Source of the DNA: an uncultured Chloroflexia bacterium
GTDB lineage: Bacteria > Chloroflexota > Chloroflexia > QHBQ01 > JADMIH01
Assembly (NCBI GenBank): GCA_963811305.1
Contig: CAWEQU010000008.1
Coordinates: 68,539-132,538 of the forward strand
Reading direction: 5' to 3'
Length of the DNA stretch: 64,000 nucleotides
Part shown: piece by piece, positions 1,514 to 62,444 of the stretch
Layout: every line of letters begins with the position of its first letter
Numbering within the stretch: position 1 is the stretch's first letter
The notes under the pieces: generated by a model
Database searches by the model: none
Told to the model about the DNA's origin: nothing
The model's input: only the letters and a program-made list of their open reading frames with translations
Position numbers and translations under genes: made by a program

Positions 1514-1593
1514 TCTCTGCGAACTCTGCTTCTCTGCGGTGAACCAATAAATAACTTGGCGTTCTTAGTCATCTTGGCGTCTTGGCGTTTAGA
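1514..1593. repeat. ~80-bp interspersed element, copy A (CTCTGCG words + GTGAACCAATAAATAAC + CTTGGCG words)
   Basis: Near-identical by eye to 3844-3923. Sits between the response regulator stop and the kinase start on the same strand. Confidence 0.8.
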
Positions 1594-1599
1594 CGGGCA

Positions 1600-2307
1600 T
1601 CAGGAGCCGCGTGGCACCTGGAACCTGTACCCGAAGCCTGGCTCAGAGAGGATGTACTGCGGGTTGGAGGGGTCATTTTCCAGTTTCTGGCGTAGCGAGC
1701 GGATGTATACCCAGAGATAGCCGGTCTCATCACGATATTCAGGTCCCCACACCTTGGTGAGCAAGTCTGCGTGAGGTATCAATTTGCCAGGCTGTTGGGC
1801 AAGCTGCTGCAATAGCTTGTACTCGGTGGGCGTGAGCTTTATTTGCTCGCCCGCGCACTCGACCTTGTGCCTGATGAAATCAATCGTCAGCTCCCCCGCC
1901 TGCAAGATATGCTGCGCTTCGTCCGCCGATGCGGGCTGGCTACGCCTCAAGAGCGCCTTTACCCTTGCTACCAACTCGTCGGGGTCGAACGGCTTGGTCA
2001 TATAGTCGTCCGCGCCTATCTCCAGGCCGTGCACCTTCTGGGACTGCTCGCCCATCGCGGTAAGCATGATTATGGGGATGTTCGACGTTTCTCGTATGCG
2101 CTGCGTCACCGCAAAGCCATCCATCCCAGGCATAGTTATGTCAAGCACCACCGCGTCAGGAGGTTCGGCAGCTACTTGATCGAGAGCAGCGGGGCCACTC
2201 GTCGCGCTGCTGACGGTGAAGCCAGCACGCTCCAGGTTGACCCTCACCAGGCGCAGCAGGCGTGGATCATCATCTACTACCAGTACATTCTGCTTAGGTT
2301 GCATCAT
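1600..2307 (-). CDS. OmpR/PhoB-family response regulator (KdpE-like)
   Basis: REC domain (VLVVDDDPRLL...DITMPGMDG) plus a winged-helix C-terminus (LTPTEYKLLQQL...VWGPEYRDETGYLWVYIRSLRQKLE...GFGYRF). Confidence 0.9.
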   Translation of the reverse strand: MMQPKQNVLVVDDDPRLLRLVRVNLERAGFTVSSATSGPAALDQVAAEPPDAVVLDITMPGMDGFAVTQRIRETSNIPIIMLTAMGEQSQKVHGLEIGADDYMTKPFDPDELVARVKALLRRSQPASADEAQHILQAGELTIDFIRHKVECAGEQIKLTPTEYKLLQQLAQQPGKLIPHADLLTKVWGPEYRDETGYLWVYIRSLRQKLENDPSNPQYILSEPGFGYRFQVPRGS

Positions 2308-2506
2308 TTCGTGAAAAGCCTCGGTTTGGGGTCATCATACCGTGTGCGGAGTCGCAAGGAGTGTGCCGCAGTGAAAAGATGCCAGATATAGGTACGTTAG
2401 GGGGTAACACAACAATTCTTAGCAATTCTTAAGGCGTTCTTAAGGCGTCTTGTCGGGCCTTCAGGAGTTTCTCAGGGGCAGACGGGTAAGATTAGGCCAG
2501 AACGAA

Positions 2507-3160
2507 ATGGCACAACACCTAAATCGCATTCCAGGGGGCACCAAGATGAACGCAATCGCTCTTACAACCCAGAACCTGACGAACGCACCGGCTCGCGGCA
2601 AGGCCCAGGCCAGCGTCACCACCAGCACCATCTCGGTGGCGGACCGCAAGCAGGCACTTCAGGAAGTATACGACAAGTATATCGAGCAGATTTACAAGTT
2701 CGTATATTTCAAGGTCGGGAACCGCGAAGATGCCGAGGATATCGTCTCGCAGGTGTTCATCAAGGCCGCTCGCTCCCTCGACGTAGCCCAGGAAGAGCAA
2801 GTGATGCTCGGCTGGCTCTACCAGGTAGCCCGCACCACTATCACCGACCACTGGCGCAGCTACTACAAAGGCCCCTCTACCAGCCTCGAAGCGATGGAAG
2901 AGGAAAGCAACCTCTACCTGGCAGCCGAACCTGTTTACATCGGCGACGCAGAAGACGCCACAAGCGAGGCCCCTGCTAAGGTGCAGGCTATCCTTGAAGT
3001 GCTCCCTGAGAATTACCGGCGCGTGTTGCAGTTCCGCTTCCTCCAGGGCTGCTCGCTCAAGGAGACCGCCGAGGCGATGGGCATTACCGAAGGCAACGCT
3101 AAAGTCCTCCAGCACCGCGCCCTCCAGAAGGCCGTCAATCTGGGCGCTCAATTTATGTAA
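2507..3160 (+). CDS. ECF-type sigma-70 family sigma factor
   Basis: Region 2 (IYKFVYFKVGNREDAEDIVSQVFIKA) and region 4 (LPENYRRVLQFRFLQGCSLKETAEAMGITEGNAKVLQHRALQKA). Start is uncertain: the ORF opens at 2450 (TTG), with ATGs at 2507 and 2546. Confidence 0.85.
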   Translation: MAQHLNRIPGGTKMNAIALTTQNLTNAPARGKAQASVTTSTISVADRKQALQEVYDKYIEQIYKFVYFKVGNREDAEDIVSQVFIKAARSLDVAQEEQVMLGWLYQVARTTITDHWRSYYKGPSTSLEAMEEESNLYLAAEPVYIGDAEDATSEAPAKVQAILEVLPENYRRVLQFRFLQGCSLKETAEAMGITEGNAKVLQHRALQKAVNLGAQFM

Positions 3161-3178
3161 TCTTCCTTCCCTCCTCCG

Positions 3179-3219: not shown

Positions 3220-3424
3220 GCGGCAACCATAAATGTTAGAATACGCGGTATGGCAGATACCGACCAGGATAAGAAGCTACCGGAAGCCCCCACGCCTCGA
3301 AGAGGGCATGTTCGACGCCCCCCACTTGCCGAGATAGAACTCCTGGGAGCGGTGGCAGGCATGGAAGCGTGGGGAGCGCAAGCGCGCTCTACCGTGGTTC
3401 GGGCTTCTGGTAGGGTTCTGCTTC

Positions 3425-3751
3425 GTGCTGGCCGGTATGTACTCGTTCTTTTTCTTCTCGACCAGCCTCACCGGGGACACTATCGCGCAGGTGGGGCTGA
3501 CGCTGGTGTTCGTAGCCTTCATGTTCGCGCTCTGGCGGCGCATCTCGCCCAGGCGTGGGTTCGCCCTGTACGTCGTTGGAGCGATGCTAGGGGTATCGGG
3601 AGGCGCGTTCCTGCTGTGGCTGCTGGCCTACAGGCTGAGCGGCTGGAACCCCTGGGTCGCCATACTCGGCACGCCTCTACTGGGGTTTGTGGGCATCTTC
3701 ATCGGCCTCCCTTCTCTCAATGCCCTGGCGCGGACCGAGCGTGAAACGTGA
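3425..3751 (+). CDS. small multi-pass membrane protein (possible ECF partner)
   Basis: Hydrophobic helices (FFFFSTSL.., LTLVFVAFMFALW, FALYVVGAMLGVSGGAFLLWLLA, VAILGTPLLGFVGIFIGL). It may start at ATG 3250 in another frame (MADTDQDKKLPE...) if a frameshift lies near 3335-3345. Confidence 0.5.
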   Translation: MLAGMYSFFFFSTSLTGDTIAQVGLTLVFVAFMFALWRRISPRRGFALYVVGAMLGVSGGAFLLWLLAYRLSGWNPWVAILGTPLLGFVGIFIGLPSLNALARTERET

Positions 3752-3836
3752 TGAGTGAGGACGGACGACGGACGACGGACGATGAAACGTGATGCGTGAG
3801 ATTAGTGTCTAACTCGTAATTCGTAATTCGTAATTC
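3741..3836. repeat. mosaic heptamer array: (GACGACG)n - GAAACGTGATGCGTGAG - (CGTAATT)3
   Basis: Tandem 7-nt periodicity read directly from the sequence. The array begins at the stop codon of the upstream CDS. Confidence 0.85.
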
Positions 3837-3843
3837 CATAAAA

Positions 3844-3923
3844 CCTCTGCGCACTCTGCGCCTCTGCGGTGAACCAATAAATAACTTGGCGTTCTTTGCT
3901 ATCTTGGCGTCTTGGCGTTTAGA
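3844..3923. repeat. ~80-bp interspersed element, copy B
   Basis: Matches 1514-1593 (CTCTGCGCACTCTGCGCCTCTGCGGTGAACCAATAAATAACTTGGCGTTCTT..ATCTTGGCGTCTTGGCGTTTAGA). Followed by two TTTGAAC units at 3927-3947. Confidence 0.8.
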
Positions 3924-3956
3924 TGGTTTTGAACTTTGAACTTTGGGAGGGGAAAG

Positions 3957-4280
3957 ATGGCTGCTCTCATGAAGAATTGGCCGCGCATAGTGATGTGGGC
4001 GCTGGTGCTTGGGGTCTTGACCAGCCTGATCGCGGACTGGGGAGAGTGGGACCGCATACTGGTCAATTTTCTCTGGCGCGCGCTTATCATAGCCGTGGGA
4101 GGGCTAGTCGGGCTGGTGCTCAACTTCTTCGCATCGGGCTACGTGAGCATGGGCACTAACGTCGTCGAGAGCATGGGGATAGTCCGCTTCAGTGAGGACA
4201 GGGATCAGAAGATAGCAAACGCCTTCATCTTCGTGGGCGCGCTTCTTGGGGCAATCGTCGCACTGATATTCGTGAAGTAA
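3957..4280 (+). CDS. small membrane protein (hypothetical)
   Basis: GGGAGGGGA Shine-Dalgarno before ATG 3957. Three predicted helices (IVMWALVLGVLTSLI, ALIIAVGGLVGLVLNFF, FIFVGALLGAIVALIFV). Confidence 0.55.
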   Translation: MAALMKNWPRIVMWALVLGVLTSLIADWGEWDRILVNFLWRALIIAVGGLVGLVLNFFASGYVSMGTNVVESMGIVRFSEDRDQKIANAFIFVGALLGAIVALIFVK

Positions 4281-5663: not shown

Positions 5664-7177
5664 ATGCCAACCAAGCACAACATCACCACCAAGCCAGATA
5701 TCCACAAACTTGCCCTCAACGGGGAGAATCAGGCTGAAAAGATTACTATGACCGCCATCGAAGCCTCCACCGCAGCCACTGATCCCACGTCCACCGCAGT
5801 AACAGACACAGAACGCCGCATCCTGGTGGCGGACGACGACGCGGATATCCGCATCCTCCTCAAGACCTTCCTCGAAGATGAAGGGTATACGGTCTCAGAA
5901 GCCGCCAACGGGCAAGACGCGCTGGAGGGGGTGAGGAGCGGCGCTTACGACCTCGTGCTGCTCGATATGCGGCTGCCGGGTATGACCGGCATGGACGTGC
6001 TCAAGCAGTTACGGGAGAAGCAAGGCAACGTGCCGGTGATCCTCATCACCGCCTACGGCTCCCCCAATATCGCGATCCAGGCGTCTTCTCTGGGCGCATA
6101 CAGCTATCATCACCAAGCCGTTCGAGCTTGACGACGTACTCCTCACGATAAGCCGCTATTTCGAGCGCCAGCAACTCATGGAGGAGGTTCGCACCCTACG
6201 CTCCCAGATGGAGCCGCGAGACCCCTCGGAGCGCATCATCGGCAACTCCCCTGCCATGCACCAGATTTACATGATGGTCGGGCGCTCCGCTTCCACCGAG
6301 GCGACAGTGCTGATTACGGGCGAGACGGGCACGGGCAAGGAGCTTGTCGCGCACGTCATCCACTCCAACTCCACCTACAGGCACGGCCCACTCATAAAGG
6401 TGAACTGCGCCGCCCTCCCAGAAACGCTGTTGGAGAGCGAGCTATTCGGGCATGAGAAGGGTGCGTTCACGAACGCCCTCACCCAGCGCAAGGGGCGCTT
6501 CGAGATGGCCCACAAGGGTAGCATCTTCCTCGACGAGATCGGCGAGATGACCCTCAGCACCCAGCGCAAGCTGTTGCGCGTATTGCAGGAGCGCGAGTTC
6601 GAGCGCGTAGGCGGCTCCCTCCCCATCAAGGTGGATACGCGCATCATCGCGGCTACCAATAAGAACCTGGAGGCTGAGGTGGACGCTGGGCGCTTCCGCG
6701 AGGACCTCTATTATCGCTTGAACGTGATTCGCATCAACATGCCGCCCCATGCGCGAGCGCTTGGACGACATCCCATTATTGGTGGAGCACTTCCTCGACA
6801 AGCACCGTTACAATCCCAATTCACCCCCGGCGCGCATAAGCGAAGAGGCAATGCAGGTGCTGGTAAAGCATGAGTGGCCGGGCAACGTGCGCGAGCTAGA
6901 GAACACAGTGCAGCGCGCCATCGTCCTGTCGCAGGGCGGCATCATCACGAGCCATCACATCCTCCTATCCAATTTCGGTGATAGGCAGGTAGTGGATATA
7001 GGTCGCCTGGTGCGCGAAGGCACCCCGCTCATGGAGATATTAGAGCAAGTAGAGAAGCAGGCCCTCACCGAGGCGATGCAGTCGTCCAAAGGTGATAGGA
7101 GCGAGGCCGCGAGGTTGCTGGGGCTGGAGCGCCCGGTCTTTTACGAGAAGCTGAAAGAGTTTGGGCTATCTTCCTAG
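5664..7177 (+). pseudogene. sigma-54-dependent Fis-family response regulator (NtrC-type), two apparent frameshifts
   Basis: REC (ILVADDDADIR..LLDMRLPGMTG) in 5664-6131. AAA+ sigma-54 interaction domain ([32 protein letters not shown]) in 6178-6873. C-terminus (WPGNVRELEN..HTH SEAARLLGLERPVFYEKLK) in 6749-7177. Shifts lie near 6105 and at the CCCC run 6745-6748. Confidence 0.88.
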
Positions 7178-7185
7178 CTAAATCT

Positions 7186-7236
7186 ATTATTCTTATCAAA
7201 ATGAGCGCCTGCGGCGCTCATTTTGATAAGAATAAT
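7186..7236. terminator. 24-bp perfect-stem bidirectional terminator hairpin
   Basis: ATTATTCTTATCAAAATGAGCGCC tgc GGCGCTCATTTTGATAAGAATAAT, between convergent genes. The core is shared with 13668-13714. Confidence 0.7.
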
Positions 7237-10032: not shown

Positions 10033-10858
10033 ATGAGCAAAATCCTTATTGTTGACGACGAGCCGACCATTGTAGACCTCCTGGAGGAGCACCTCCAGAG
10101 CGAGGGCTACGATACCGCGCACGCTTTCTCCGGCGAGGAAGCGTTGCAGGTGCTCGATAACGTCACCCCCGACCTGGTTATTCTCGACCTGATGCTCCCA
10201 GGTATGGATGGCTACGAGGTTTGCCGCCTCATGCAGCAGGACCCACGCCTTAACCACATCCCGGTTATCATGGTGACCGCGAGGAGCGCCATACCTAACA
10301 AGGTGATGGGCTACCAGCGAGGGGCGGATGATTACGTGGTCAAGCCGTTTGACCCCGAAGAGCTGAGCGTGAGGGTGCGCGCCCAGCTCCACCACCTGTA
10401 CCACGACACCGTAGCCGAGCTTACCGGCCTACCCGGCCCCCAGGTGATTGAGGAGACCATCCAGCGCCGGACGCAAGACCGTGCTCGCCCTTGGGCTATC
10501 GTCTACGTGGACATAACCAACTTCACAGCCTACAACGAGTTCGTACACCTTCCTGGAAGGGGACGACATGATAAAGGAAGCGGCGCAGGCACTTGATGAT
10601 GCTGTCCAGCAGGCGGGGGAGGGAGACGACTTCGTAGGGCACATGGGGGGCGACAAGTTTGTGGTAATCACCGAGCCGCCACGTGTGGAAGCTATTACCA
10701 CGTGCGCCCAGGAGCTTTTCTCTAAGGGGAGGGACAGCCTCTACTCCCCGGTCGAGCGCGAGCAGGGTTTCGTCGCCACCGTGAACCGCCAGGGCCTCCT
10801 CGCCCATGTAGGGCTGTGTGCGCTCGATTTCGAGGTGGTTACGAGTGAAGAAGAGTAG
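10033..10858 (+). pseudogene. response regulator with degenerate GGDEF domain (GGDKF), one apparent frameshift
   Basis: REC (ILIVDDEPTIVDLL..ILDLMLPGMDG) in 10033-10596. The GGDEF-like part (EGDDMIKEAAQAL...VGHMGGDKFVVI) is in 10568-10858. Shift near 10541-10545. Confidence 0.8.
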
Positions 10859-11214
10859 GGCTAAAGGACGACGGACGACGGACGAACGCAAGTACTCGTT
10901 CCTCGATCACACTTATTACTTATCCACGCACCCACTTAACCATCTTTCGTTTTTCGGCCCCCAAATACCCTCCAAACGACCAATTTTGGACCAATTTGCG
11001 AAAAAGCCCCCAAAAAATGTCCCGTTTTGACCCCGAAATGGGATTAAGTTAATAGAGATGCATTTCCGACCTCGCCAGTCGCAGTCGAGGTCCAACCCCA
11101 AGGGTCCCGCTGGTGTCCCTGTCGTCGAGGGAATTACACTCTCCCTCGATACCCCCCAAAAGGAGGTCTCAGCCTAGAATTTAGAGTACGAAGTAGCGAG
11201 TGCCACCTCGCAAT

Positions 11215-11243
11215 CACTCCGCACTCCGCACTCCGCACTCCAC
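11215..11243. repeat. heptamer array (CACTCCG)x4
   Basis: Direct tandem repeat inside the 670-bp gene-free region. Confidence 0.85.
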
Positions 11244-11531: not shown

Positions 11532-12320
11532 CTACCGCCTTGCGGCTTTGAGCCAGGCAGCGAGGACGCTGGCCGACTGCCCTAGCGTGGCCTGGCGGTC
11601 GGGGTGGAAATATGGGTTGCTGTACGGCGGCACGCACGGCTCAGGTGGATTGACGCTGCCGCAATCATACCCTTTCATAATGCCCAACGCGTATACCTGC
11701 TCTACGTATTGCCTGTATGGGTCATCTTGCGGCAGGTCCTGGAAGGAGGGTCTTTCAGGTATCCTCATATCTTTGAAAAGTGCGTAGTCGGCTAGCGATA
11801 TAGCCACGGCCAGTTCCTCTCGCGTTACTGAGGCATCCGGGCGGAAGTATGGCCTGGATGCCAGATCGCAAGGCTCTTTCTCACCTTCGTTGCTAACGGC
11901 TCCGCATGAAAACCCGCTCATAACGCCGTGCAGGGTTACCCTCTCGATCCATGCGTATGCCGGGTGCGACGGCGGCACATCAGCGAAAGTCTGCACAACT
12001 AGCACCTCGCTCCAGCCTTTTGCCTTGCTCACCATCATTGCAAGTTCCTTGCGCGTAAGCGGAAAGCCTACTCGGAAGTAAGGACGGTTGAGATCATCGC
12101 AAGGCTCACCTGGGCCGCCACATGGGTAGCCGGTAGTCACCCCCATCTTCGATAGCTGCTCCACGGCAGGCCAAAAGCTGCTGCCGGTGGGCACGTCAGC
12201 GTAGGTTTGAACCCTGGAGGCAGGGGAGAGCACTGACGAGTTTGCAGCCAGGACCGCGATGAGCATCAAGAGTATGCACACCCAGGCAACAGTGCTTGAT
12301 TTTGAATAGCGTCGCTCCAT
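11532..12320 (-). CDS. secreted SLH-repeat protein
   Basis: Signal-like N-terminus (VAWVCILLMLIAVLAANS) and four repeats of the variant SLH unit (FADVP..H.AYAWIE..GVMSGF.CG...EPCD...RPYFRP...VTREELA). Confidence 0.75.
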   Translation of the reverse strand: MERRYSKSSTVAWVCILLMLIAVLAANSSVLSPASRVQTYADVPTGSSFWPAVEQLSKMGVTTGYPCGGPGEPCDDLNRPYFRVGFPLTRKELAMMVSKAKGWSEVLVVQTFADVPPSHPAYAWIERVTLHGVMSGFSCGAVSNEGEKEPCDLASRPYFRPDASVTREELAVAISLADYALFKDMRIPERPSFQDLPQDDPYRQYVEQVYALGIMKGYDCGSVNPPEPCVPPYSNPYFHPDRQATLGQSASVLAAWLKAARR

Positions 12321-13667: not shown

Positions 13668-13714
13668 TTTACTCATGAAAATGAGCGCCTGCGGCGCTCA
13701 TTTTCATGAGTAAA
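13668..13714. terminator. 22-bp perfect-stem hairpin sharing its core with 7186-7236
   Basis: TTTACTCATGAAAATGAGCGCC tgc GGCGCTCATTTTCATGAGTAAA. It lies between the start of the GT-C gene (13634) and the stop of the upstream co-directional ECF sigma gene (13768), i.e. just downstream of that sigma gene on the minus strand. Confidence 0.6.
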
Positions 13715-13767
13715 AGAAATGTTGTTTTGAGCTTTCGCATAGTTGAGTGCGGTTGCCGAAATGGAGC

Positions 13768-14355: not shown

Positions 14356-14485
14356 GGCACGTCCTCCCAGTAGTCTCGCGCGCCCACGATCCTGCTATGT
14401 TATTATCGTACTTTTGCAAGAAATATGCCACAGGATGCTCCACCACTTGCGCACGCTAAAAATCGCCGTTATAATGCGAATTGTG

Positions 14486-14610
14486 GTGCGTGAAACGTGA
14501 GGCGTCGTAATAGACGACGGACGACAAACGATGGACGATGGACGATGGACGATGGACGATGGACGATAGGTGCGTAAACTCGTAATTCGTAATTCGTAAT
14601 TCGTAATTCG
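14486..14610. repeat. mosaic heptamer array: GAAACGTGAGG - (GACGRYR)n incl. (GACGATG)x4 - (CGTAATT)x4
   Basis: Fills most of the divergent ECF-sigma/rpoN intergenic region. The 7-nt periodicity was read directly. Confidence 0.85.
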
Positions 14611-14628
14611 AAAGCGGAGGGAGCAGGC

Positions 14629-19654: not shown

Positions 19655-19655
19655 A

Positions 19656-48194: not shown

Positions 48195-48205
48195 CTCTCT
48201 TTCTG

Positions 48206-48272
48206 GTCCAAAGTCTAATGTCTAAAGTCCAAAGTCACGCAAAACTCTCACGCATCACGCATCACGTTTCAC
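48206..48272. repeat. heptamer arrays (TCYAAWG)x4 + reverse-complement (GTGATGC) word block
   Basis: GTCCAAAGTCTAATGTCTAAAGTCCAAAGTC and CTCACGCATCACGCATCACGTTTCACC, between the two XdhC genes. Confidence 0.85.
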
Positions 48273-48601
48273 CAGTCTAATGGCTCTACGTACACGCTGA
48301 TTGTGCCGCCGCATGATAGGCCGACGTCGGTGAGCATGTCGGCGGTGATGCCATATTGGAGTAGCGCGGGCTGACCGGAGCGTAGCACCCTCAGCGCCTC
48401 CTCGACTACCGCGCCCTCTACACAGCCACCACTCACCGATCCCGCGATTTCGCCGCTCTCCGACACGGCCAGCTTCGCCCCTTCGCGCCTGGGGGCAGTA
48501 CCGACTACGCGCACCACAGTGGCAATCGCCACGCGCTCACCCATGCCACGCCAACGCTCAATCGCAGGCAGAAGGTCGTTCTTGAAGGTATCAGTCTCCA
48601 T
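48269..48601 (-). CDS. XdhC N-terminal-domain protein
   Basis: VAIATVVRVVGTAPRREGAKLAVSESGEIAGSVSGGCVEGAVVEEA is the XdhC_CoxI N-domain signature. Confidence 0.8.
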   Translation of the reverse strand: METDTFKNDLLPAIERWRGMGERVAIATVVRVVGTAPRREGAKLAVSESGEIAGSVSGGCVEGAVVEEALRVLRSGQPALLQYGITADMLTDVGLSCGGTISVYVEPLDW

Positions 48602-50119: not shown

Positions 50120-50375
50120 AGTCGTTACTCCCTTTGATGAGCTTGCGAACTCTTACTTTAGCTTCGTCCCCGACAATGAGATGGGAGCGTCTAGCCAGTA
50201 TACCCTCGATGTTGCTGCCGAGATAGTGATCCGGGAAAAGCTGCGGGTGATTACAATAACCAGAACCAGCAGAGAGCCTAGACTGAAAAGGAGTTGTCCT
50301 AGCTACTTCTGGATACGAGAACTGGAGTGCTAGGATTATATCAGATAATCTAAGCACTTATTTTGCCTCAACCTA

Positions 50376-50429
50376 TTGACAAACGCTTATTTCGGTGATA
50401 AACTTTGTTAGTTCAGTGGACTAACAAAG
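50376..50429 (+). promoter_or_regulatory. promoter (TTGACA-17-TAAACT) overlapped by 10-bp inverted repeat CTTTGTTAGT-N7-ACTAACAAAG
   Basis: Read directly. The inverted repeat at 50403-50429 overlaps the -10 element, upstream of the ROK regulator gene. Confidence 0.5.
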
Positions 50430-51653: not shown

Positions 51654-51657
51654 CCTA

Positions 51658-51699
51658 TTGACAAAGCAAGATTCATGTGATATTATGGGAGCGCTCCCA
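51658..51699 (+). promoter_or_regulatory. promoter (TTGACA-17-TATTAT) immediately followed by a perfect CebR/CelR-type box TGGGAGCGCTCCCA
   Basis: -35 at 51658-51663, -10 at 51681-51686, and the 14-bp palindrome at 51686-51699. Confidence 0.7.
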
Positions 51700-51769
51700 T
51701 AGGTCGGTGGGGATGGCACTCATTCATGCTCAGAATAATCTATTGTAGTGCTTCACATGGAGCATTCTA

Positions 51770-51783
51770 TAGGAGCGCTCCCA
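51770..51783 (+). promoter_or_regulatory. second CebR/CelR-type box (TAGGAGCGCTCCCA, 13/14)
   Basis: Lies between the promoter and the preferred LacI start at 51811. Confidence 0.6.
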
Positions 51784-51810
51784 AAACAGCGTAACGGAGT
51801 CGTCTACTTT

Positions 51811-52876
51811 ATGCCCTCTACATTGGAAGAAATCGCTAAACACGCCGGTGTCTCACGCTCGACCGTTTCGCGGGTGATGAACGACCACCCTAGCGTGGAC
51901 GATGAGACAAGGGCGCGGGTGCTGTCAGTAGCAGAGCGCCTCAACTACCAGCCCAATATGGCGGCGCGGAGCCTGGCTGCCGGGCGCACCCGTATACTCG
52001 GACTTGTTATCCCTATGGGCGTCTCTGCCCTCTTCACGGATCCTTACTTTCCCCTCCTTATTCAAGGTATCTCTTCCGCCTGTAGCGCTAATAATCACTC
52101 GGTAATGCTCTGGATCGCGGAGCCAGAATATGAGCGCCGCACGATTCGCCAGGCGTTGCAGGGTGGCATGATTGACGGCGTCATCCTTGCCTCCGCGCTG
52201 ATGGACGATCCGATGCTGGAAGCATTGCGAAAGCGCGGCCTCCCCTTCATCCTGGTGGGACGTCATCCAACCGACGACAATCTGAGCTATGTCGACGTGG
52301 ATAACAGGAGCGCCGCACGCGACATGGTTTCCTACCTGATACGCCTGGGCTACGAGCGCATAGCGACCATTACCGGCCCCAAGAATATGATCGCGGGCGC
52401 AGACCGGTTGCAAGGCTATCTCAACGCCCTGCGGGAGCGAAGAGTAGCTCACGATGCCGATCTGATTGTTGAAGCAGATTTCACCGAAGAAGGTGGATAT
52501 GCCGCAATGCAGCGTCTTCTCCCTTTTGCGCCCGACGCCGTCTTTGCCGCAAGTGATGCAATGGCGGTGGGCGCGCTGCGCGCACTGCGTGATGCAGGCA
52601 AGCGAGTTCCCGGACGACATTGCGGTTACGGGATTCGATGACGTGCCCTTTGCCGCCCGTACGGACCCACCCCTGACCACAGTCAGGCAGCCCATTCAGC
52701 CTATGGGGGCTGTCGCTGCTGAAACGCTAATTAACATGATAAGTCACCCCGATGGGCAGCCGCACCGCGTACTCTTGCCCACGGAATTGATTATTCGAGC
52801 ATCATGCGGCTCCAATCTAGGGAAGGGACCGGCACCTAAGGGAATGGCGTATACAGACAAACGTCCGGCTTTATAA
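51811..52876 (+). pseudogene. LacI-family repressor (CebR/CelR-like), one apparent frameshift
   Basis: HTH MPSTLEEIAKHAGVSRSTVSRVMN. The periplasmic-binding-fold body continues after a shift near 52608-52612 as DDIAVTGFDDVPFAARTDPPLTTVRQP. Confidence 0.82.
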
Positions 52877-53053
52877 GCCACTACATCTTTTCTATAACCA
52901 CATAGCGCACCTGGCATAGAGATAATTGCACAGCGTCCTAGTACGAACCAGAAATCCGGCGTCAAAGGAGGTGGTCACACTGCCAAGTTAGACCTAAGAT
53001 ACTGTGGGTAATGGTAACCCCCAATTGCTCTAACTCAAAGGAGGATACTCAAA

Positions 53054-54595: not shown

Positions 54596-54599
54596 AGTA

Positions 54600-54662
54600 G
54601 TTCAAGGTTCAAGGTTCAAAGTTCAAGGATTTTCTTTGAACTTTGAACCTTGAACCTTGAAC
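54600..54662 (+). repeat. intercistronic hairpin: (GTTCAAR)x4 / (YTTTGAAC-type)x4
   Basis: 29-nt arms, 28/29 complementary, 5 nt after the SBP stop codon. Confidence 0.9.
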
Positions 54663-54681
54663 AACGTAGGAGATATAGGTA

Positions 54682-55646: not shown

Positions 55647-55707
55647 GAGTTACGAATTACGAATTGAGAAGAACACTTAAGAACTCGTAATTCGTAATTC
55701 GTAACTC
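55647..55707 (+). repeat. intercistronic hairpin built from CGTAATT words
   Basis: GAGTTACGAATTACGAATTGAG ... CTCGTAATTCGTAATTCGTAACTC. Confidence 0.85.
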
Positions 55708-55730
55708 GTAATTAGAAGAGTGAGGGATAG

Positions 55731-56817
55731 ATGGCAACCTTGACCCGAGAAGAAAATAGACGTCTAGCGACATCCGAACGCCGGACCAGGTGGGGACCGC
55801 GCCGTCTTTCCGCACGGGTGTTTGTCACCCTTGTTGGGTTGGTAGTCATGCTGATCTTCCTGATGCCGCTGGGCTATATGTTCATGACTGCGTTCAAGAA
55901 CGATTCTCAGCTTTCCGCTCAGCACGCACCTCTGTGGCCCGCCGAAGCCTCCACCTACAACTACCAGGGCAAGGAGCTGCCACTTTACGAGGTGCCAACA
56001 AGCGAAGGGACCAAGCAGTGGGCTTTGGTCAAGGGCTTCCGTGAAGATCAGCGACTTTGTTGACCCCGCCCATCCTGAGCAGGGCGTATTCAATTGGATA
56101 GGGAGATACCGGACGCTTGACCCGGTTTACCACTTCGCGCCGACCTTCGACAACTTTGTCATGGCCTGGAACCAGGTGAACTTCACCACTCTGTTCAAGA
56201 ATACCTTCTTGATCGCCATCATCAGCACGGTGGGCACGTTGATTTCGTGCATCCTCGTGGCCTATGGGTTTGCACGCTTTCGTATTCCCGGCAAGAATAT
56301 CCTTTTCATCATCCTGATCTCGACGATAATCCTGCCGCCACAGGCGACTATCATACCGCTCTACATATTGTTCGCCAAACTGGGGTGGACGGGGACGTGG
56401 CTGCCGCTACTCGTGCCCGCCTTCTTCGCCAACGCATATAATGTCTTCTTGCTGCGCCAGTATTTTATGAGCATCCCCAAGGAAATGGACGAGGCCGCGA
56501 TGCTCGATGGGGCCAGCCCGTTGCGGACGCTTATATCGGTTATACTTCCCCAGTCCATCCCGGCAATCACGGCGGTCGCCATCTTCCACTTCTTCTTTAC
56601 CTGGAACGACTATTTCGCGCCCCTGGTTTACCTGGTAGGCAAAGAGGACCTGTACCCGATCTCGGTAGGCATAGCCAAGTTTGTAGGTACATTCAGTATC
56701 TACCCGGGGCGAGCAATGGCAACGGCGGTGATGACTCTCATTCTCCCTGCGGTGATATTCTTCTTCGCCCAGCGCCAGTTCATGCAGGGTGTGGTAGTTA
56801 CGGGTGTAGATAAGTAG
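55731..56817 (+). pseudogene. ABC sugar transporter permease (MalG/CebG-like), one apparent frameshift
   Basis: N-terminal TM helix in 55731-56063; the remainder, with the EAA loop (DEAAMLDGASPLRTLISVILPQS), in 56041-56817. Shift near 56035-56041. Confidence 0.85.
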
Positions 56818-56821
56818 CATT

Positions 56822-56868
56822 AGGATTTTGGATTTTGGATTGGATAATAGCCTCCAAAATCTAAAATT
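56822..56868 (+). repeat. intercistronic hairpin built from GGATTTT words
   Basis: AGGATTTTGGATTTTGGATTGG ... CCTCCAAAATCTAAAATT. Confidence 0.75.
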
Positions 56869-56912
56869 GAGTAGGGAGACCAATATTCCATGCAAGTAGA
56901 GGACAATCAAGA

Positions 56913-58264
56913 ATGATAACCCCGGAAATCCGAAATCCGAAATCCGAAATCCGAAATTGGCCGGTTGATTTTGCCTGGGGTGCTGCCACGGCTGCTTACC
57001 AGATCGAGGGCGCGTTCAACGAGGATGGCAAGGGAGAGTCGATATGGGACCGCTTCAGCCACACGCCGGGTAAGGTACATAACGGCGATACGGGCGACGT
57101 GGCGTGCGACCATTACCATCGCTACCGCGAAGATATCGCTTTGATGAAGCAGATAGGTCTGAAGGCATATCGCTTTTCGATCTCCTGGCCCAGGGTCGTC
57201 CCAAACGGGCGCGGCGCGGCCAATCCCCCCGGGCTGGATTTCTATGATAGGCTCGTGGATGAATTGCTGGAGGCGAATATTCAACCATTCCCGACCCTTT
57301 ACCACTGGGACCTGCCACAGGCTCTGCAAGATATAGGCGGCTGGGGAAACCGCGACACCTGCGGCTATTTCGCTGATTACGCCGCACTCATGGCGAGACG
57401 CCTCGCCGACCGGGTTAGCCACTGGACTACCTTCAATGAGCCGTGGGTTTCGGCTTTTATCGGTAATTATGAAGGCAGACACGCTCCAGGCTTGACCTAT
57501 ATGAAGCTGGCGATGCACGTAACGCATCATCTGCTGGTCGCGCACGGGCTTGCGACACAAGCAATCCGCACTGTAGCCCCTCAAGTCAAGATAGGCATCG
57601 TACTGGACTTCGCACCCCCTGAGCCAGCCAACGATACCGAGGCGAACCGTGCCGCCGTAGAAGTCAATGTGGCAGCGGGGTGGAGCGCTCTTCTTAGACC
57701 CACTTTTCCGTGGACACTATCCACCCGCCGTCCAACCAGCGGTTGAAAAATACGAGGTGCCGGTGCAGTCGGGAGACCATGACCTGATCGCGCAACCTCT
57801 CGACTTTGTAGGCATCAACTTCTACCGGCGCATGGTGTTTGACGAGAAAGGCAACCTGAAGCGCGTTCCAGGGGCTGAGTACACCGAAATGGACTGGGAA
57901 GTCCACGCACCCGCGTTCAAGCGTCTGCTGCTTCACCTTTAACAGCGAGTACAGCCTACCGCCCATCTATATTACCGAGAACGGGGCTGCGTTCACAGAT
58001 AATGTCAGCCATGACGGCGAGGTCCACGATGAGCGCCGCGTGAATTATCTTCGGGAGCATCTTGGCGCGGTGCGTGAGGCCATGTCGGAAGGCGCGGATA
58101 TACGCGGTTATTTTGCCTGGTCGCTGCTCGACAACTTTGAGTGGGCAGAGGGCTATTCCAAGCGCTTCGGACTCGTATATATCGATTATCCGACTCAGCA
58201 GCGCATCCTCAAAGATAGCGGGAAATGGTACGCGCAGGTCATAGCGCAGAACAGAATTGACTAG
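56913..58264 (+). pseudogene. bglB: GH1 beta-glucosidase, two apparent frameshifts
   Basis: [15 protein letters not shown], the acid/base motif TFNEPWV and the nucleophile motif YITENGAAF, with the tail WSLLDNFEWAEGYSKRFGLVYID. Pieces are 56913-57746, 57667-57942 and ~57940-58264. Confidence 0.88.
56925..56957 (+). repeat. heptamer array (GAAATCC)x4.7 inside the 5' end of the bglB reading frame
   Basis: Encodes [12 protein letters not shown] between the only in-frame ATG (56913) and the conserved GH1 N-terminus. Confidence 0.85.
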
Positions 58265-58265
58265 A

Positions 58266-58322
58266 GTTCAAAGTTCAAAGTTCAAGGAGATTACTTTGAA
58301 CCTTGAACTTTGAACCTTGAAC
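58266..58322 (+). repeat. intercistronic hairpin of GTTCAAR words
   Basis: GTTCAAAGTTCAAAGTTCAAGG ... CTTTGAACCTTGAACTTTGAACCTTGAAC, right after the bglB stop codon. Confidence 0.9.
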
Positions 58323-58342
58323 CGCCCCGAGGAAGCAATTTG

Positions 58343-59356: not shown

Positions 59357-59393
59357 CCGCCAAGACGCCAAGACGCCAAGTAAACGCCAAGAT
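59356..59393 (+). repeat. octamer word block ACCGCCAAGACGCCAAGACGCCAAGTAAACGCCAAGAT
   Basis: Near-identical to the left arm of the element at 23212-23383. Single arm only. Confidence 0.85.
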
Positions 59394-59446
59394 TTTTATG
59401 GGTTTGCTGCCTACCGCTTTCTGCCTACTGACAAGGGAGTGACGGG

Positions 59447-61051
59447 ATGACAAAGACAAATACAGAACTCGTAGGAACGATGCTTACCCTTGAGCAAGCC
59501 GTCGGCCAGAAGTTGCTAGCAGCTTTCCAGGGTTACCAGGTACCCACGGAGTTAGCAGATTTACTGGGGCGCACGCAGATCGGTGGGGTAACACTGTTCC
59601 GCTCATTGAATGTGCAGGACCCTTCTCAGGTACGCGAACTGACCAGTTCCTTGCAAGCGGCAGCAGCCATAGCCGGGCAGCCTCCACTTTTGATTTGCGC
59701 GGACCAGGAGGGCGGCCAGTTGTTGGCTATGGCCGGTACTACACCCTTCCCAGGCAACATGGCACTGGGGGCTACGCACTCACCCGCGCTCAGTCGCCGC
59801 ACGGGCCTCGCAATAGGGCGCGAGCTTGCCGCTATGGGTATAAACGTCAACTACGCCCCGGTCTGCGATGTGAACGTCAACCCGCAAAACCCGGTAATAG
59901 GCACCCGCTCTTTCGGCGAGGACCCTGCCGAGGTGGGGCGGCTTGGCGCGGCAATGATCGAGGGGCTACAGGCAGCAGGGGTGGCAGCCACCGCCAAACA
60001 CTTCCCAGGTCACGGCGATACGGCCACCGACTCGCACTATGGCACGCCCGTGCTACCCTTCGGCGAAGAGCGTTTGCGCAGGGTCGAGTTGCCCCCGTTT
60101 AGCGCCGCGATTGAGGCGGGCGTCAAGCTGATGATGACCGCACATATTGCCCTTCCGGGTCTCACAGGCGGCCTCGAAGTGCCTGCCACCCTTTCCCCAG
60201 CGATCATGCGGAAGCTTTTGCGCGACGATCTCGGCTTTGAGGGGATAGTAGTCAGCGACGCGATGGACATGGGCGCTATTCAGAGAGGGCTGGGTTTGGT
60301 AATTGACTGTATCGCTGCATCGGCGGCTGGGGTAGATTTGCTGTTGCTCGCCGACTGCGGCGATGGCTTCGAGGCTGTATATGCAGCTCTGCTGCAAGCA
60401 GCTAAAAGAGGTCTGCTTGCACACGGCGAAATCTTGGCATCAGCCCAGAGAGTGCTAGAACTGAAAGCATGGCTCAGCAAGCAGGAACAACCCGGCCTGG
60501 AGGTCATACAGTGCGACGAGCATCGCGCCCTCGCCTACGAGATAGCTGCCCATTCAGTTACTCTCGTGCGCGATGAGGAGGGGTGCCTGCCGCTAAGTCT
60601 CGAGGACGATGCCAGGATAGCGCTTATCCTGCCTCGTACAGCAAACCTCACGCCCGCCGACACCTCTTCTTACGATAGGCCGGTCCTGGCGGAGATGCTG
60701 CGCAGATACCATCCCGCTGTTGACCAGATAGATGTGCCCACCAACCCCACTTCGTCCGATATTGGCGATGTGCTGCAACAGGTAAAAGGTTACGACCTTG
60801 TGATAGCGGGTACTATCAACGCCTTCCAGCATTCGGGGCAGGCCGCCCTGGTCAATTCGCTCCTTGAGACTGACAGCAAGGTAATAGCTGTGGCGCTTCG
60901 TCTACCATATGACCTATCGGCATATCCTGGTGCGCCTACATATATCTGCACGTATAATCTTCAGCCGCCGTCAATGGAAGCCCTGGCCGACGCCCTGTGG
61001 GGGCGAATCCCCTTCCTGGGACGATCACCTGTGACGGTGGCCCTCGGCTAG
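59447..61051 (+). CDS. GH3 glycosidase (NagZ-type beta-N-acetylhexosaminidase-like)
   Basis: ADQEGGQL..., NVNYAPVCDVN..NPVIGTRSFG, and KHFPGHGDTATDSH (the Asp-His dyad region typical of NagZ-type GH3). Confidence 0.82.
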   Translation: MTKTNTELVGTMLTLEQAVGQKLLAAFQGYQVPTELADLLGRTQIGGVTLFRSLNVQDPSQVRELTSSLQAAAAIAGQPPLLICADQEGGQLLAMAGTTPFPGNMALGATHSPALSRRTGLAIGRELAAMGINVNYAPVCDVNVNPQNPVIGTRSFGEDPAEVGRLGAAMIEGLQAAGVAATAKHFPGHGDTATDSHYGTPVLPFGEERLRRVELPPFSAAIEAGVKLMMTAHIALPGLTGGLEVPATLSPAIMRKLLRDDLGFEGIVVSDAMDMGAIQRGLGLVIDCIAASAAGVDLLLLADCGDGFEAVYAALLQAAKRGLLAHGEILASAQRVLELKAWLSKQEQPGLEVIQCDEHRALAYEIAAHSVTLVRDEEGCLPLSLEDDARIALILPRTANLTPADTSSYDRPVLAEMLRRYHPAVDQIDVPTNPTSSDIGDVLQQVKGYDLVIAGTINAFQHSGQAALVNSLLETDSKVIAVALRLPYDLSAYPGAPTYICTYNLQPPSMEALADALWGRIPFLGRSPVTVALG

Positions 61052-61114
61052 TTCAAAGTTCAAGGTTCAAAGTTCAAAGTAACCTCTTTGAACTTTGAAC
61101 CTTGAACTTTGAAC
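61051..61114 (+). repeat. intercistronic hairpin, perfect 29-bp stem of GTTCAAR words
   Basis: GTTCAAAGTTCAAGGTTCAAAGTTCAAAG taacct CTTTGAACTTTGAACCTTGAACTTTGAAC. It starts at the last base of the GH3 stop codon. Confidence 0.92.
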
Positions 61115-61135
61115 CGTAAAAGGAGGTAGGCGCTG

Positions 61136-62293
61136 ATGTTCTATGTTGAGCCTGGGGCTATAGTGACGCCTGAGGGCTTACTGGAGGATCGCGCGGTGCT
61201 TGTGGATGAGGAGCGCATCGGTGCCGTTGATTATACTTCCCGGTTATCATGCCCGGCGGGAGCGCGCCGAGTGCAAGCTGCCGGTCTGTTGCTCGCTCCG
61301 GGGTTTATTGACCTCCAGATAAATGGGGCCTTCGGCAATGATTTCACAAACGAGCCAGGCACTATCTGGGAGGTCGCCTCCCAGCTGCCCAGGTATGGTG
61401 TAACTTCATTTCTCCCGACGATTGTTAGCTCGCCGCGTGAGATGGTGGTCATGGCCCAGGATGTCATCTGCGAAGGGGCACCCCCAGGGTTCAAGGGTGC
61501 TACTCCGCTTGGGCTTCACCTCGAAGGGCCGTTTCTCAACCCGGCAAAGCGCGGTGCGCACAATCCGACGCACCTGCGCCTGCCTGATACGACAGAGGCT
61601 CAAAGCTGGAGGCTGGATAGAGGTATTCGTCTGGTGACGCTGGCCCCTGAATTACCCGGCGCACATGAGATGATTGAAATGCTGGTAGCGCAGGGTATAG
61701 TCGTCAGCGCGGGCCATTCGCTAGCCAGTTATGAGGAGGGGGTCGCCGGTATAAATGCGGGTATCACATATGGCACTCACTTGTTCAATGCCATGCCTGC
61801 ATTGGACCACAGGGAACCAGGACTGGTGGGTGCGCTGCTTGGTCATAGCCAGGTAACCGTTGGAATAATAGCCGACGGCATCCACCTGCACCCCAGCCTG
61901 GTGGCGCTGGCCTGGAAAGCTAAAGGCCACCTCCGGGTAAGCCTGGTGACGGACGCCATGGCGGCGCTCGGCATGCCTGCGGGCACCTACACGCTGGGGG
62001 ACCAGGACGTGATCGTGGAGGATGAGGCGGCGCGCCTGGCAGATGGCAGGTTGGCGGGAAGCGTGCTGACTCTGGACCAGGCGGTACGCAACCTGGTCAA
62101 TTTTGCAGGTTGTCGTCCATACGAGGCCATCTCGATGGTAACCGCCGTACCTGCATCGATACTCAGAATGGCGGACTCACGTGGCCGGATTGCGCCTGGC
62201 TTCCTGGCCGACATGGTCTTGCTGGATAGCGATCTGCGAGTTGTGGAGACGTTGGTAGCAGGTGAGGTCGTTTATTCAACCCGGGCCGGATAG
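61136..62293 (+). CDS. nagA: N-acetylglucosamine-6-phosphate deacetylase
   Basis: PGFIDLQINGAFG, HLEGPFLNP.KRGAH, SAGHS, THLFNAM.. motifs in NagA order. Confidence 0.88.
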   Translation: MFYVEPGAIVTPEGLLEDRAVLVDEERIGAVDYTSRLSCPAGARRVQAAGLLLAPGFIDLQINGAFGNDFTNEPGTIWEVASQLPRYGVTSFLPTIVSSPREMVVMAQDVICEGAPPGFKGATPLGLHLEGPFLNPAKRGAHNPTHLRLPDTTEAQSWRLDRGIRLVTLAPELPGAHEMIEMLVAQGIVVSAGHSLASYEEGVAGINAGITYGTHLFNAMPALDHREPGLVGALLGHSQVTVGIIADGIHLHPSLVALAWKAKGHLRVSLVTDAMAALGMPAGTYTLGDQDVIVEDEAARLADGRLAGSVLTLDQAVRNLVNFAGCRPYEAISMVTAVPASILRMADSRGRIAPGFLADMVLLDSDLRVVETLVAGEVVYSTRAG

Positions 62294-62295
62294 GA

Positions 62296-62444
62296 GTTCA
62301 AAGTTCAAGGTTCAAAGTTCAAAGTAGTTGCGTAATTACATTGAACATTGAACATTGAACTTTGAACTTTGAACCTTGAACTTTGAACTTTGAACTTTGA
62401 ACCTTGAACCTTGAACCTTGAACCTTGAACCTTGAACTTTGAAC
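62296..62444 (+). repeat. asymmetric inverted heptamer arrays: (GTTCAAR)x4 versus 15 units of (CATTGAA x3, CYTTGAA x12)
   Basis: The left 29-mer is identical to 61051-61079. The right array is 106 nt with a 7-nt period, counted directly. Confidence 0.92.

Follow-up and report, generated by a model that had tools for sequence, protein, structure and literature searches.

Heptamer repeat arrays in the gene spacers of an uncultured Chloroflexia bacterium: an unusually rich case of a known class, with inverted pairs that make long hairpins between cistrons

Heptanucleotides are reported to be the most abundant units among the long simple-sequence repeats (LSSR) of prokaryotes, and polymerase slippage has been proposed for them (Mrazek 2007, in the summary given by PMC4679880). 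Arrays of such units were analysed here in a 64 kb stretch of the genome of an uncultured Chloroflexia bacterium (hereafter the window), the gene map of which was built by merging obviously frameshifted open reading frames (ORFs). On present evidence these arrays represent an unusually rich case of a known, poorly understood class and not a categorically new system; their novelty is that of a variant, on account of the many word families, the organisation in hairpins and mosaics, and a new vocabulary that reaches across phyla. An earlier note, made on this DNA from its letters alone, had recognised no described system of the kind; heptamer repeats have in fact been published for prokaryotes including Chloroflexus, Xanthomonas and Nostoc, whereas the words found here and their hairpin and mosaic organisation do look undescribed. 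None of the published heptamer words that were checked occurs in tandem in the window, and a literature search did not find these arrays printed in a bacterial context.

Among the published repeats, the GGGNATC heptamers of Xanthomonas and Nostoc prefer the gaps of aligned ORFs and are scarce in those of divergent ones, rules of placement that the arrays of the window share; their function is reported as unknown (Rehm et al. 2015, PMC4692102). The arrays of the window show the properties of the LSSR class, namely an excess of tandem 7-nt units, a strong excess in non-coding DNA with a shortage in divergent gaps, copy numbers, lengths and sequences that vary between close relatives, and inverted copies, which have been noted for LSSR as well. 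They differ in their words, which lack the GGG tracts of the published repeats that form G-quadruplexes (G4), in comprising about ten families instead of one, and in their systematic long perfect hairpins and mosaics. The TAACTGA repeats of marine Beggiatoaceae, also present in cyanobacteria and Bacteroidetes, lie just before start codons (MacGregor 2015, PMC4679880). These too are intergenic tandem heptamers that often abut the boundary of a coding sequence (CDS), with one word found across distant phyla without an evident transfer mechanism; however, they consist of a single word, nearly always repeated directly in forward orientation, with 1 nt left between array and start codon, whereas the arrays studied here are many-worded, lie mainly after stop codons and include many inverted pairs. 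In the same bacterial class, Chloroflexus aurantiacus carries (GATAGRA)n satellites (Subirana and Messeguer 2019, PMC6749651), which are likewise derived from a heptamer and scattered over a genome of similar G+C content (56.7%, compared to about 57% in the window). The report on these satellites gives a single word and describes neither hairpins nor mosaics, and GATAGGA and GATAGAA are never in tandem in the window.

The earlier note had drawn an analogy with the heptamers of heterocystous cyanobacteria and with the enterobacterial mosaics of palindromic elements, and this analogy proved apt; the arrays are multi-family and modular (an 85-nt module occurs twice, and an 87-nt segment is found again in another genome; see below). 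The short tandemly repeated repetitive (STRR) heptamers, reportedly known from these cyanobacteria since the work of Mazel et al. in 1990, are said to be tandem heptanucleotides of several families, scattered over intergenic and often transcribed DNA. Here the host is a Chloroflexia bacterium encoding sigma-54, which cyanobacteria to our knowledge lack, hairpin pairing and a polarity rule are documented, and neither STRR1 (CCCCAGT), STRR2 (TTGGTCA) nor STRR3 (CAACAGT) occurs even twice in tandem in the window. The window also encodes SLH-domain proteins and two-component regulators, and its GH3 glycoside hydrolase is closest to proteins of uncultured Chloroflexia, from metagenome-assembled genomes (MAGs). 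Repetitive extragenic palindromes (REP) and the bacterial interspersed mosaic elements (BIME) resemble the arrays in being extragenic hairpins in transcribed DNA, presumably so for the arrays, at gene 3' ends or between cistrons, rare between divergent genes, arranged in mosaics and dispersed in many copies. REP sequences are said to stabilise malE mRNA (work attributed to Newbury et al., 1987), and this stabilisation of upstream mRNA in malEFG matches the position of a hairpin after a binding-protein gene in our bacterium. REP elements are imperfect palindromes of about 35 nt with a fixed consensus and no 7-nt periodicity, whereas several unrelated words, repeated every 7 nt, make up the stems described here; since such repeats are slippage-prone, stem length changes quickly. 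REP doublets forming hairpins (REPINs; PMC3116915) differ further in being tied to RAYT transposases, of which none was seen among the window ORFs scanned. Intercistronic stem-loops in general are reported to control operon stoichiometry (PMC4423207 and PMC10311766). Finally, the omega protein (ParB) of plasmid pSM19035 binds 7–10 contiguous 7-bp heptads (WATCACW), direct and inverted (PMC9499535), so that unit length, contiguity, the use of both orientations and a 5-bp core with variable flanks are all reminiscent of the arrays, one word of which (CATCACG) contains the ATCAC core. Its heptads lie in three promoters of one plasmid and are bound by the product of a neighbouring ribbon-helix-helix gene, whereas the arrays are chromosomal, avoid promoter gaps, and no linked gene was found for them among the ORFs scanned.

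Tandem Repeats Finder (TRF) returned 59 rows in the window, most of them with period 7. Perfect period-7 runs of at least 17 nt number 24, compared to 0.1 in first-order Markov shuffles, and each of the other periods from 4 to 12 is represented by 0–2 runs. The arrays cover 1009 of 6672 non-coding nucleotides (15%) and 79 of 57328 coding ones (0.14%), and their density is about one per 3 kb of chromosome. Units are mostly 7 nt long, some 8–9 nt, and about ten word families are combined as modules. At every position for which the earlier note had given an array TRF found one, the weakest being 25066-25098 (75% matches), and the 8-nt GCCAAGAC and the 8–9-nt CTCTGCG arrays are both present; the reach of the arrays had been overstated, as they occur in 19 of the 39 gaps of at least 30 nt, not in most of them, and in seven of the nine gaps of the N-acetylglucosamine/ATP-binding cassette (GlcNAc/ABC) sugar operon, not in every one. 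Some of the words listed as separate families turn out to be the same: GGATTTY is the reverse complement of GAAATCC, the CGTGAWR family takes in GTGATGC as well as the 17-mer, and TCYAAWG is one base off YTTGAAC. About ten families remain nevertheless, a total that stays as it is with the addition of CTGCCTW (59405-59430), a word that had been missed. A preferred order of words was borne out in its first part, (GACGRYR)n followed by GAAACGTGATGCGTGAG, at 3757-3800 and 17471-17530 and also in the relatives L065, L116 and L118, but the trailing (CGTAATT)n was present only at 3810-3836 and at L115 4806-4927, where it is preceded by a CGTGATG array alone, without a GACGRYR array. The arrays are real: the possibility of an assembly artefact is ruled out by their presence at orthologous positions of the independent assemblies L120, L264, L121 and L265. 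A CRISPR array was also considered and is ruled out by the 7-nt period and the lack of spacers.

The placement of the arrays is far from random with respect to genes. At least twelve begin 0–7 nt after a stop codon, in keeping with the remark of the earlier note that arrays often start at one, and one stop codon (3742-3744) sits within an array. Sorted by gap type, 15 of the 24 gaps between co-directional genes of the window bear arrays, as do 2 of the 6 between convergent and 2 of the 9 between divergent ones (hand tally; Fisher p=0.057), and for five word families over all loci 61 arrays were counted in convergent compared to 28 in divergent gaps (p=0.0006); because these positional figures, like those for polarity given below, rest on crude ORF calls and on loci picked by the words themselves, they are indicative only.

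Overlooked by the earlier note were the polarity of the hairpins, described below, and the fact that many arrays are inverted pairs, which make near-perfect hairpins of 20–37 bp with folding energies of -18 to -58 kcal/mol. In the sugar operon of the window the pairs are of the types (GTTCAAR)n-loop-(YTTGAAC)n, (TTACGAA)n-loop-(TCGTAAT)n and (GGATTTT)n-loop-(AAAATCY)n, their folding energies ranging from -18 to -49 kcal/mol and their z-scores from -4 to -13. Between the gene of the solute-binding protein (SBP) and that of permease 1, (GTTCAAR)4 and (YTTGAAC)4 face each other across the loop (54598-54664; -49.4 kcal/mol, z -13.0). Permease 1 is separated from permease 2 by (TTACGAA)2.3 and (TCGTAAT)4.1 (55650-55713; -30.2 kcal/mol, z -7.6), and permease 2 from the GH1 gene by (GGATTTT)2.7 and CCAAAATCTAAAAT (56820-56866; -17.8 kcal/mol, z -4.1). 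From GH1 to the ROK kinase gene, (GTTCAAR)3 pairs with (YTTGAAC)4 (58263-58325; -28.0 on the plus strand and -33.9 on the minus strand); a hairpin of (GTTCAAR)4.4 and (YTTGAAC)4.1, with a perfect stem of 29 bp, has as its first base the G of the stop codon (TAG) of GH3 (61048-61116; -45.6 kcal/mol, z -13.2), and the hairpin between NagA and the SIS gene (62295-62447) has the unequal arms (GTTCAAR)4.4 and (NTTGAAC)15. At 59358-59430, plus-strand arrays of family D17 run from (CGCCAAGA)2.9 through TAAACGCCAAGATTTT to CTGCCTAC/CTGCCTAC units, CTGCCTA being the reverse complement of a rotation of GGCAGTA. Two kinds of array can be told apart in the window, namely these hairpin-type elements and unstructured solo or mosaic arrays, as at 3739-3960 and 14485-14640, the structure of which is no better than that of shuffles (z +0.5 and -0.1).

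Promoter-like sites for the operon were found only upstream of it, at 50376 and 51658, which is consistent with a transcribed context of the arrays; the strong ones span 50372-50404 (TTGACA-17-TAAACT) and 51654-51700 (TTGACA-17-TATTAT). On the 3' side of the latter lies the palindrome TGGGAGCGCTCCCA, which is duplicated in L121 (2007-2170) and probably serves as operator for the operon's ROK or LacI-type repressor. Intrinsic terminators were considered for the array hairpins and rejected, as no terminator-like match coincides with any of them, a U tract is lacking, and the hairpins lie inside the operon, followed by a ribosome-binding site (RBS) and the next cistron. The covariance models of Rfam 15 gave no match at the gathering score, and below it only spurious matches of microRNA precursors to long hairpins. 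The folding energies of the operon hairpins are about equal on both strands, the stems being nearly perfect, and a comparison of G-U wobble asymmetry thus gives no contrast; with near-perfect stems equally stable on both strands, selection at the level of RNA and at the level of DNA (cruciforms) are inseparable.

The GlcNAc/ABC sugar operon is also present in L120 (GH3 91% identical), L121 (87%) and L264 (82%), and a related operon occurs in L265 (68%). At the junction of SBP and permease 1 a strong hairpin was found in all four genomes, made of GTTCAAR in three of them and of an ordinary, non-repeat sequence in L121. Between the two permeases it is strong in three of the four and weaker in L121 (-13.5 kcal/mol); the word is of the CGTAATT type in three genomes and AATTTTG in L120, and in this replacement both arms have been switched together. 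Between permease 2 and GH1 the hairpin is again strong in all four, with a GGATTTT-type word in three and a TGCGTAC-type word in L264. That the hairpin is kept while the word is swapped argues that the paired form matters as structure and not as sequence. In L265, which carries a non-orthologous ABC operon, the gap from SBP to permease is filled by a perfect stem of 37 bp at -58 kcal/mol.

The last three junctions of the operon vary between genomes and contain a hairpin, a solo array, one insertion resembling a miniature inverted-repeat transposable element (MITE), or nothing. From NagA to the SIS gene the 3' arm counts 15 copies in the window, compared to 6 in L120, and the site is empty in L121 save for one GTTCAAAG unit. 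In L120 one hairpin arm (11614-11696) codes for a C-terminal extension of GH3. The junction of ROK2 and GH3 holds in L121 (9672-10000) an element of about 300 nt with long terminal inverted repeats (-167 kcal/mol), where arrays are present in the window and nothing in L120. Overall, the arrays turn over fast and expand up to a constraint, and at some junctions the hairpin as such is kept. Exact-protein look-ups of GH3, the N-domain of XdhC and permease 1 gave no match to near-identical strains, and a search of metagenomes with the rpoN region returned one locus, of 71% identity and without wider synteny, that has arrays of its own upstream of rpoN.

The explanation that we prefer, and to which we would give about an even chance, is that the arrays are slippage repeats of the STRR/LSSR type, dispersed as modules and tolerated in transcribed spacers, which act as intercistronic RNA stem-loops in the manner of REP/BIME when they are paired. 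Units would grow and shrink by slipped-strand mispairing, and modules or whole hairpins, the copying of which is evident from their distribution, would be transferred between sites by recombination or template switching, leading to mosaics common to non-orthologous sites and to different genomes; the same processes may homogenise the arms. Selection confines the arrays to presumably transcribed spacers, where they begin at the stop codon and end shortly before the RBS that follows; they are rare between divergent genes and at times encroach on gene ends. Within a polycistronic mRNA, paired arrays would form a hairpin of 20–37 bp that is kept by selection at some junctions, most clearly after the SBP gene of ABC operons, and that could serve as a barrier to 3' exonucleases or as an RNase III site, setting the relative expression of the cistrons as REP/BIME do in the malEFG operon of E. 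coli. The unstructured solo mosaics would then mostly be tolerated filler, or half-elements.

Several points weigh against this explanation. The equal stability on both strands fits selection on RNA or on DNA cruciforms alike, and the solo mosaics without structure (z about 0) are left unexplained by a hairpin model. The hairpins of the last three operon gaps are dispensable, being absent in L121 and partly in L120, and the joint change of both arms could have arisen by quasi-palindrome template switching without selection. Positional statistics are limited as stated above, and the transcription, processing and stabilisation of array RNA are all steps that we infer. Moreover, slippage alone does not account for the same few words across phyla, nor for the unit of 7 nt.

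In this respect it may be asked whether the arrays are nothing but filler, neutral or selfish, which slippage and template switching leave behind as mutational by-products and which builds up wherever selection permits, with functionless hairpins. We give this a real, though clearly minority, chance. The arrays occupy exactly the free space from stop codon to RBS and encroach on gene ends, they are rapidly gained, lost and replaced between genomes with GH3 proteins 82–91% identical, their arms may be as unequal as 4.4 and 15 copies, and there is neither structure in the solo mosaics nor any recurring family among the genes next to arrays (211 flanking ORFs). Yet filler would not be expected to persist as a hairpin at three junctions in four genomes despite word turnover (weaker between the permeases of L121), once even as an ordinary non-repeat hairpin, nor to be matched by a hairpin after the binding-protein gene of the non-orthologous L265 operon; the biases in polarity and sense strand described below likewise need selection or a strongly directional mechanism. 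A further case of retention is provided by XdhC, of which the N-domain and C-domain ORFs (window 47427-48601; L265 335-1503) are parted by a 74-nt array spacer that supplies the stop codon. In the window the spacer consists, on the sense strand, of (CGTGATG)2.7 and (CTTTGGA/CTTTAGA)4.4, and reaches from the stop of the N-domain to the RBS of the C-domain ORF (48206-48268, minus strand). Its first array, (CGTGATG)n right at the stop, has been kept in the more distant L265, with GH3 only 68% identical, and the second is related but different. The arrangement suggests that the XdhC split represents a gene fission associated with repeats.

The preferred explanation also requires dispersal as modules, for which there is evidence within and beyond the window. 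A composite module of 85 nt (family D9), (CTCTGCGN)3 - GTGAACCAATAAATAA - (CTTGGCGT)3, is located between two minus-strand genes at 1512-1596, with a TRF period of 8 at 1555-1588, and a second copy, 91% identical, at 3842-3926; partial reverse copies were found at 23233-23261 and 59373-59401. Near-identical hairpins of families D1 and I1 are present at several window sites, and module D9 and the linkers ATTAGTGTCTAACT and GTGAACCAATAAATAA recur between sites and genomes. The second D9 copy lies in a series of plus-strand arrays that starts with the mosaic CGTGAAA-CGTGATG-AGTGAGG, (GACGGAC)3.3 and GAAACGTGATGCGTGAG (3739-3800), the first array of which encloses the stop codon TGA (3742-3744) of ORF 3250-3744. 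It continues with the linker ATTAGTGTCTAACT and (CGTAATT)3.9 (3801-3836), a pair that occurs again at a non-orthologous site of L115, and ends with (TTTGAAC)2.6 (3928-3945), immediately 5' of GGGAGGGG and the start codon ATG at 3957. An 87-nt segment within this series (3788-3873) shares 88% identity with a site of SMAG_U8985 (L115), a Chloroflexia MAG, that is not orthologous to it, and past the shared part the two copies run into different arrays. Loci of SMAG_U8985 also show nesting, with GACGAYR arms around CGTGAWR and CTGCCTW arrays. Such nesting and sharing make the arrays mosaics of the kind known from BIME.

A common polarity runs through the word families. Among the matches listed, CGTGANN forms the 5' arm of 46 inverted pairs and the reverse order was found in none; over 21 word families, the arm with more G than C is on the 5' side in 14 and the arm with less G than C in 2 (p=0.004). 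In co-directional gaps, the solo arrays of CGTGANN (36:16, p=0.008) and GGCAGNN (27:8, p=0.002) favour the sense strand, and the strand bias of GACGANN and GTTCAAN is not significant. The tendency of the G-rich strand towards the 5' side might be caused by avoidance of unpaired, C-rich nascent RNA that would be open to Rho loading. Uniform polarity within a family, as from a founder element, could also point to non-autonomous mobile elements of the REPIN/MITE type, moved by a transposase coded elsewhere and possibly carried by phages, and near-identical hairpins at several sites, modules common to non-orthologous sites of different genomes, presence/absence polymorphisms and the occurrence of array words in IMG/VR contigs would all be accommodated by such elements. 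We nevertheless consider them very doubtful, because the polarity rule spans unrelated word families and is not merely a founder effect, and because every copy has a copy number and word order of its own, a pattern more in line with slippage than with cut-and-paste. No transposase was seen among the window ORFs scanned (64 kb), nor did one recur among the 211 flanking ORFs. Comparison of filled and empty sites in the four genomes showed neither target-site duplications nor fixed element ends; REPINs and IS200/IS605 elements, it should be added, insert without target duplications.

The arrays are not confined to this lineage. The species-representative genomes, scanned for exact copies of GAAACGTGATGCGTGA, contain at least 119 loci, mostly from Chloroflexota among the matches listed, the others listed being from complete Poribacteria chromosomes, Verrucomicrobiota, Acidobacteriota and Desulfococcaceae HSG8. 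Since about 280 matches to a 16-mer would be expected by chance in that collection, context decides whether a match is real: a further in-register CGTGA unit was found at 76 of the 119 matches listed (less than one expected by chance, by our own estimate), and an inverted array within 110 nt at 39 of them. Period-7 runs dominate in every taxon group but Poribacteria. In the latter (L002, L016, L020, L038, L071, L086, L089) the 16-mer is part of another conserved element, CGTGAAACGTGATGCGTGAAACGTGAA ... TTCATT ... CCGACCTACG, which is repeated at many sites, with hardly any long heptamer arrays nearby. Heptamer arrays that include the CGTGAWR word are also present in Anaerolineae, Verrucomicrobiota, Acidobacteriota, Desulfococcaceae and virus-labelled (IMG/VR) contigs. 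Three-unit arrays in IMG/VR contigs amount to 16 for CGTGATG, 45 for GTTCAAG and 16 for GACGATG; shuffled-word controls gave 2 and 6 loci, and a third, GGCAGTA, gave 56 and is itself a word of the vocabulary, which makes the control set too small to prove the vocabulary special.

This distribution raises the possibility, unlikely in our estimation, of an unrecognised cross-phylum system, in which a small heptad vocabulary (CGTGAWR, GGCAGTA/CTGCCTA, GTTCAAR and GACGAYR) with the G-rich arm first would depend on a conserved trans-acting factor and not on generic slippage. The factor could be either a protein that covers 7 nt and polymerises along the arrays or an enzyme dedicated to adding repeats or copying hairpins; the vocabulary itself occurs in Chloroflexota, Verrucomicrobiota, Acidobacteriota, Desulfococcaceae and the virus-labelled contigs. 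A related proposal, which we regard as quite improbable, is that the arrays serve as platforms on which a sequence-specific protein binds with a footprint of 7 nt, one protein or dimer per unit. Candidates of the same low standing would be a ribbon-helix-helix protein on double-stranded DNA, like omega/ParB of pSM19035, or a cold-shock-domain protein on single-stranded RNA; cold-shock proteins have been proposed for the TAACTGA heptamers (PMC4679880). Identical words recur across phyla, the unstructured solo mosaics would be accessible to such a protein, and CATCACG, the reverse complement of CGTGATG, contains the ATCAC core of the omega heptads (WATCACW). In an unbiased count, variation within arrays of the CGTGA and GACGA families was 2–3 times higher at unit positions 6–7 than at 1–5, which fits a 5-bp recognition core plus spacer, but this 5+2 pattern is absent in the GGCAG family and different in the GTTCA family. 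In addition, each of about ten words would need a cognate protein, the arrays are depleted in divergent promoter regions, where operator arrays would be expected, and the arms of the hairpins are separated by loops whereas omega sites are contiguous. No ribbon-helix-helix gene was found to adjoin arrays among the ORFs scanned, and no other gene family recurs beside CGTGAWR arrays among the 211 flanking ORFs.

Two arrays of the window have positions from which they could influence the expression of a neighbouring gene. The first is an unstructured plus-strand mosaic at 14488-14610 (folding z -0.10), consisting of CGTGAAA/CGTGAGG, about eight GACGAYR units and (CGTAATT)4.4, which extends from just past a TATAAT box to 18 nt 5' of the GTG start codon of rpoN and is, given this span, probably the rpoN leader. 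The second, (GAAATCC)4.7 on the plus strand (56925-56957), lies inside the N-terminal CDS of GH1 and codes for nine additional residues in the window and L120, and none in L121, where the array is absent. It is complementary to the upstream GGATTTY arm, and a pairing of that GGATTTT arm with (GAAATCC)4.7 (56823-56957) would place the RBS and the start codon in the loop, a possible translational switch. Such probable leaders and coding ends, together with copy numbers that differ between relatives, are what one would look for in contingency (phase-variation) loci, where a change in copy number switches expression of the neighbour. We hold this to be exceedingly improbable for the arrays as a whole: their neighbours are ordinary metabolic and regulatory genes, not genes for surface or host-interaction functions, most arrays follow stop codons, where length has no effect on the reading frame, and phase variation was likewise dismissed for the GGGNATC repeats (PMC4692102).

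Further arrays of the window lie outside the sugar operon. On the plus strand, (GGACGAC)2.9 (10866-10885) is a solo array 7 nt past the stop of ORF 10568-10858, and (CACTCCG)3.9 (11215-11241), also solo, occupies a convergent gap; CACTCCG is arrayed in L115 too. The plus-strand series (GGACGAC)2.9, GATAGACGAT and GAAA(CGTGATG)3.7 (17471-17530) is antisense to the minus-strand genes on either side, (GACGACG)2.3 followed by (ACGCAAAG)2.6 (19655-19703, plus) begins at the stop of a TPR gene, and (GACGATA)6.6 (20756-20801, plus) takes up the entire 46-nt gap of two plus-strand genes. A long-range hairpin (23217-23378; -81.4 kcal/mol, z -8.3) is made by inverted arrays with units of 8–9 nt, (ACGCCAAG)n at 23217-23252 and (TCTTGGCGC)n at 23354-23378. 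In a convergent gap, past an ordinary terminator hairpin, (GGACGAT)3.9 is read on the minus strand (25069-25095). Two more plus-strand arrays lie between minus-strand genes: (AAGTTCA)5.7 (29784-29823), a solo arm that fills a 50-nt gap and overlaps the stop of 29822-30526, and (CGGACGA)4.6 (41417-41458), between the genes of a histidine kinase and a response-regulator oxidoreductase. A second intragenic heptamer array, (GGGGGTC)3.7, was found at 46715-46740 within the CDS of a zinc-ribbon protein (45990-46931, minus).

Other elements of the window have no 7-nt periodicity. A palindromic MITE-like repeat of about 94 nt (16153-16246) adjoins a HicB antitoxin gene (16278-16550) and is 87–89% identical to non-orthologous copies in SMAG_U8985 (L116 3001-3094, L118 1147-1230). 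Two terminator-like, A/T-flanked hairpins (AAAATGAGCGCCTGCGGCGCTCATTTT) at 7192-7235 and 13672-13715 are 86% identical to each other, from which it follows that non-heptamer hairpins are dispersed as copies too. The G+C content falls to 0.48–0.52 at about 24000-28400, where ORFs 25326-28343 have no Pfam match except for a weak DUF1064; this region may have been acquired horizontally as an island, or may be what is left of a prophage. A search of a plasmid database gave no match for a window gene. Split ORFs were found for a LacI-type repressor (51748-52900), permease 2 (55731-56817), GH1 (56913-58263), an NtrC-like activator (5664-7177) and a giant PPC/Kelch/SLH protein (33029-39640); the first three are intact in L120, L264 and L121, and the last two have no counterpart in the fetched loci. 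The splits look like indel errors of long reads, or recent pseudogenisation, and such presumed errors leave the 7-nt repeats unaffected, as these are confirmed by independent assemblies.

Bacterial heptamer repeats have been known since 1990 without an accepted function or origin. A polarity rule that holds over unrelated words and phyla, with the G-rich arm first, a bias to the sense strand and avoidance of divergent promoters, constrains any mechanism that may be proposed for them, and a vocabulary common to several phyla and to virus-labelled contigs makes one ask whether the words were transferred or have a reader in common. There are practical consequences as well, since the arrays divide genes (XdhC), lengthen coding ends or intrude into them, and can mislead both gene callers and assemblers where Chloroflexota MAGs are concerned. 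Should a factor dedicated to reading or writing the heptads come to light, the arrays would gain much in importance.

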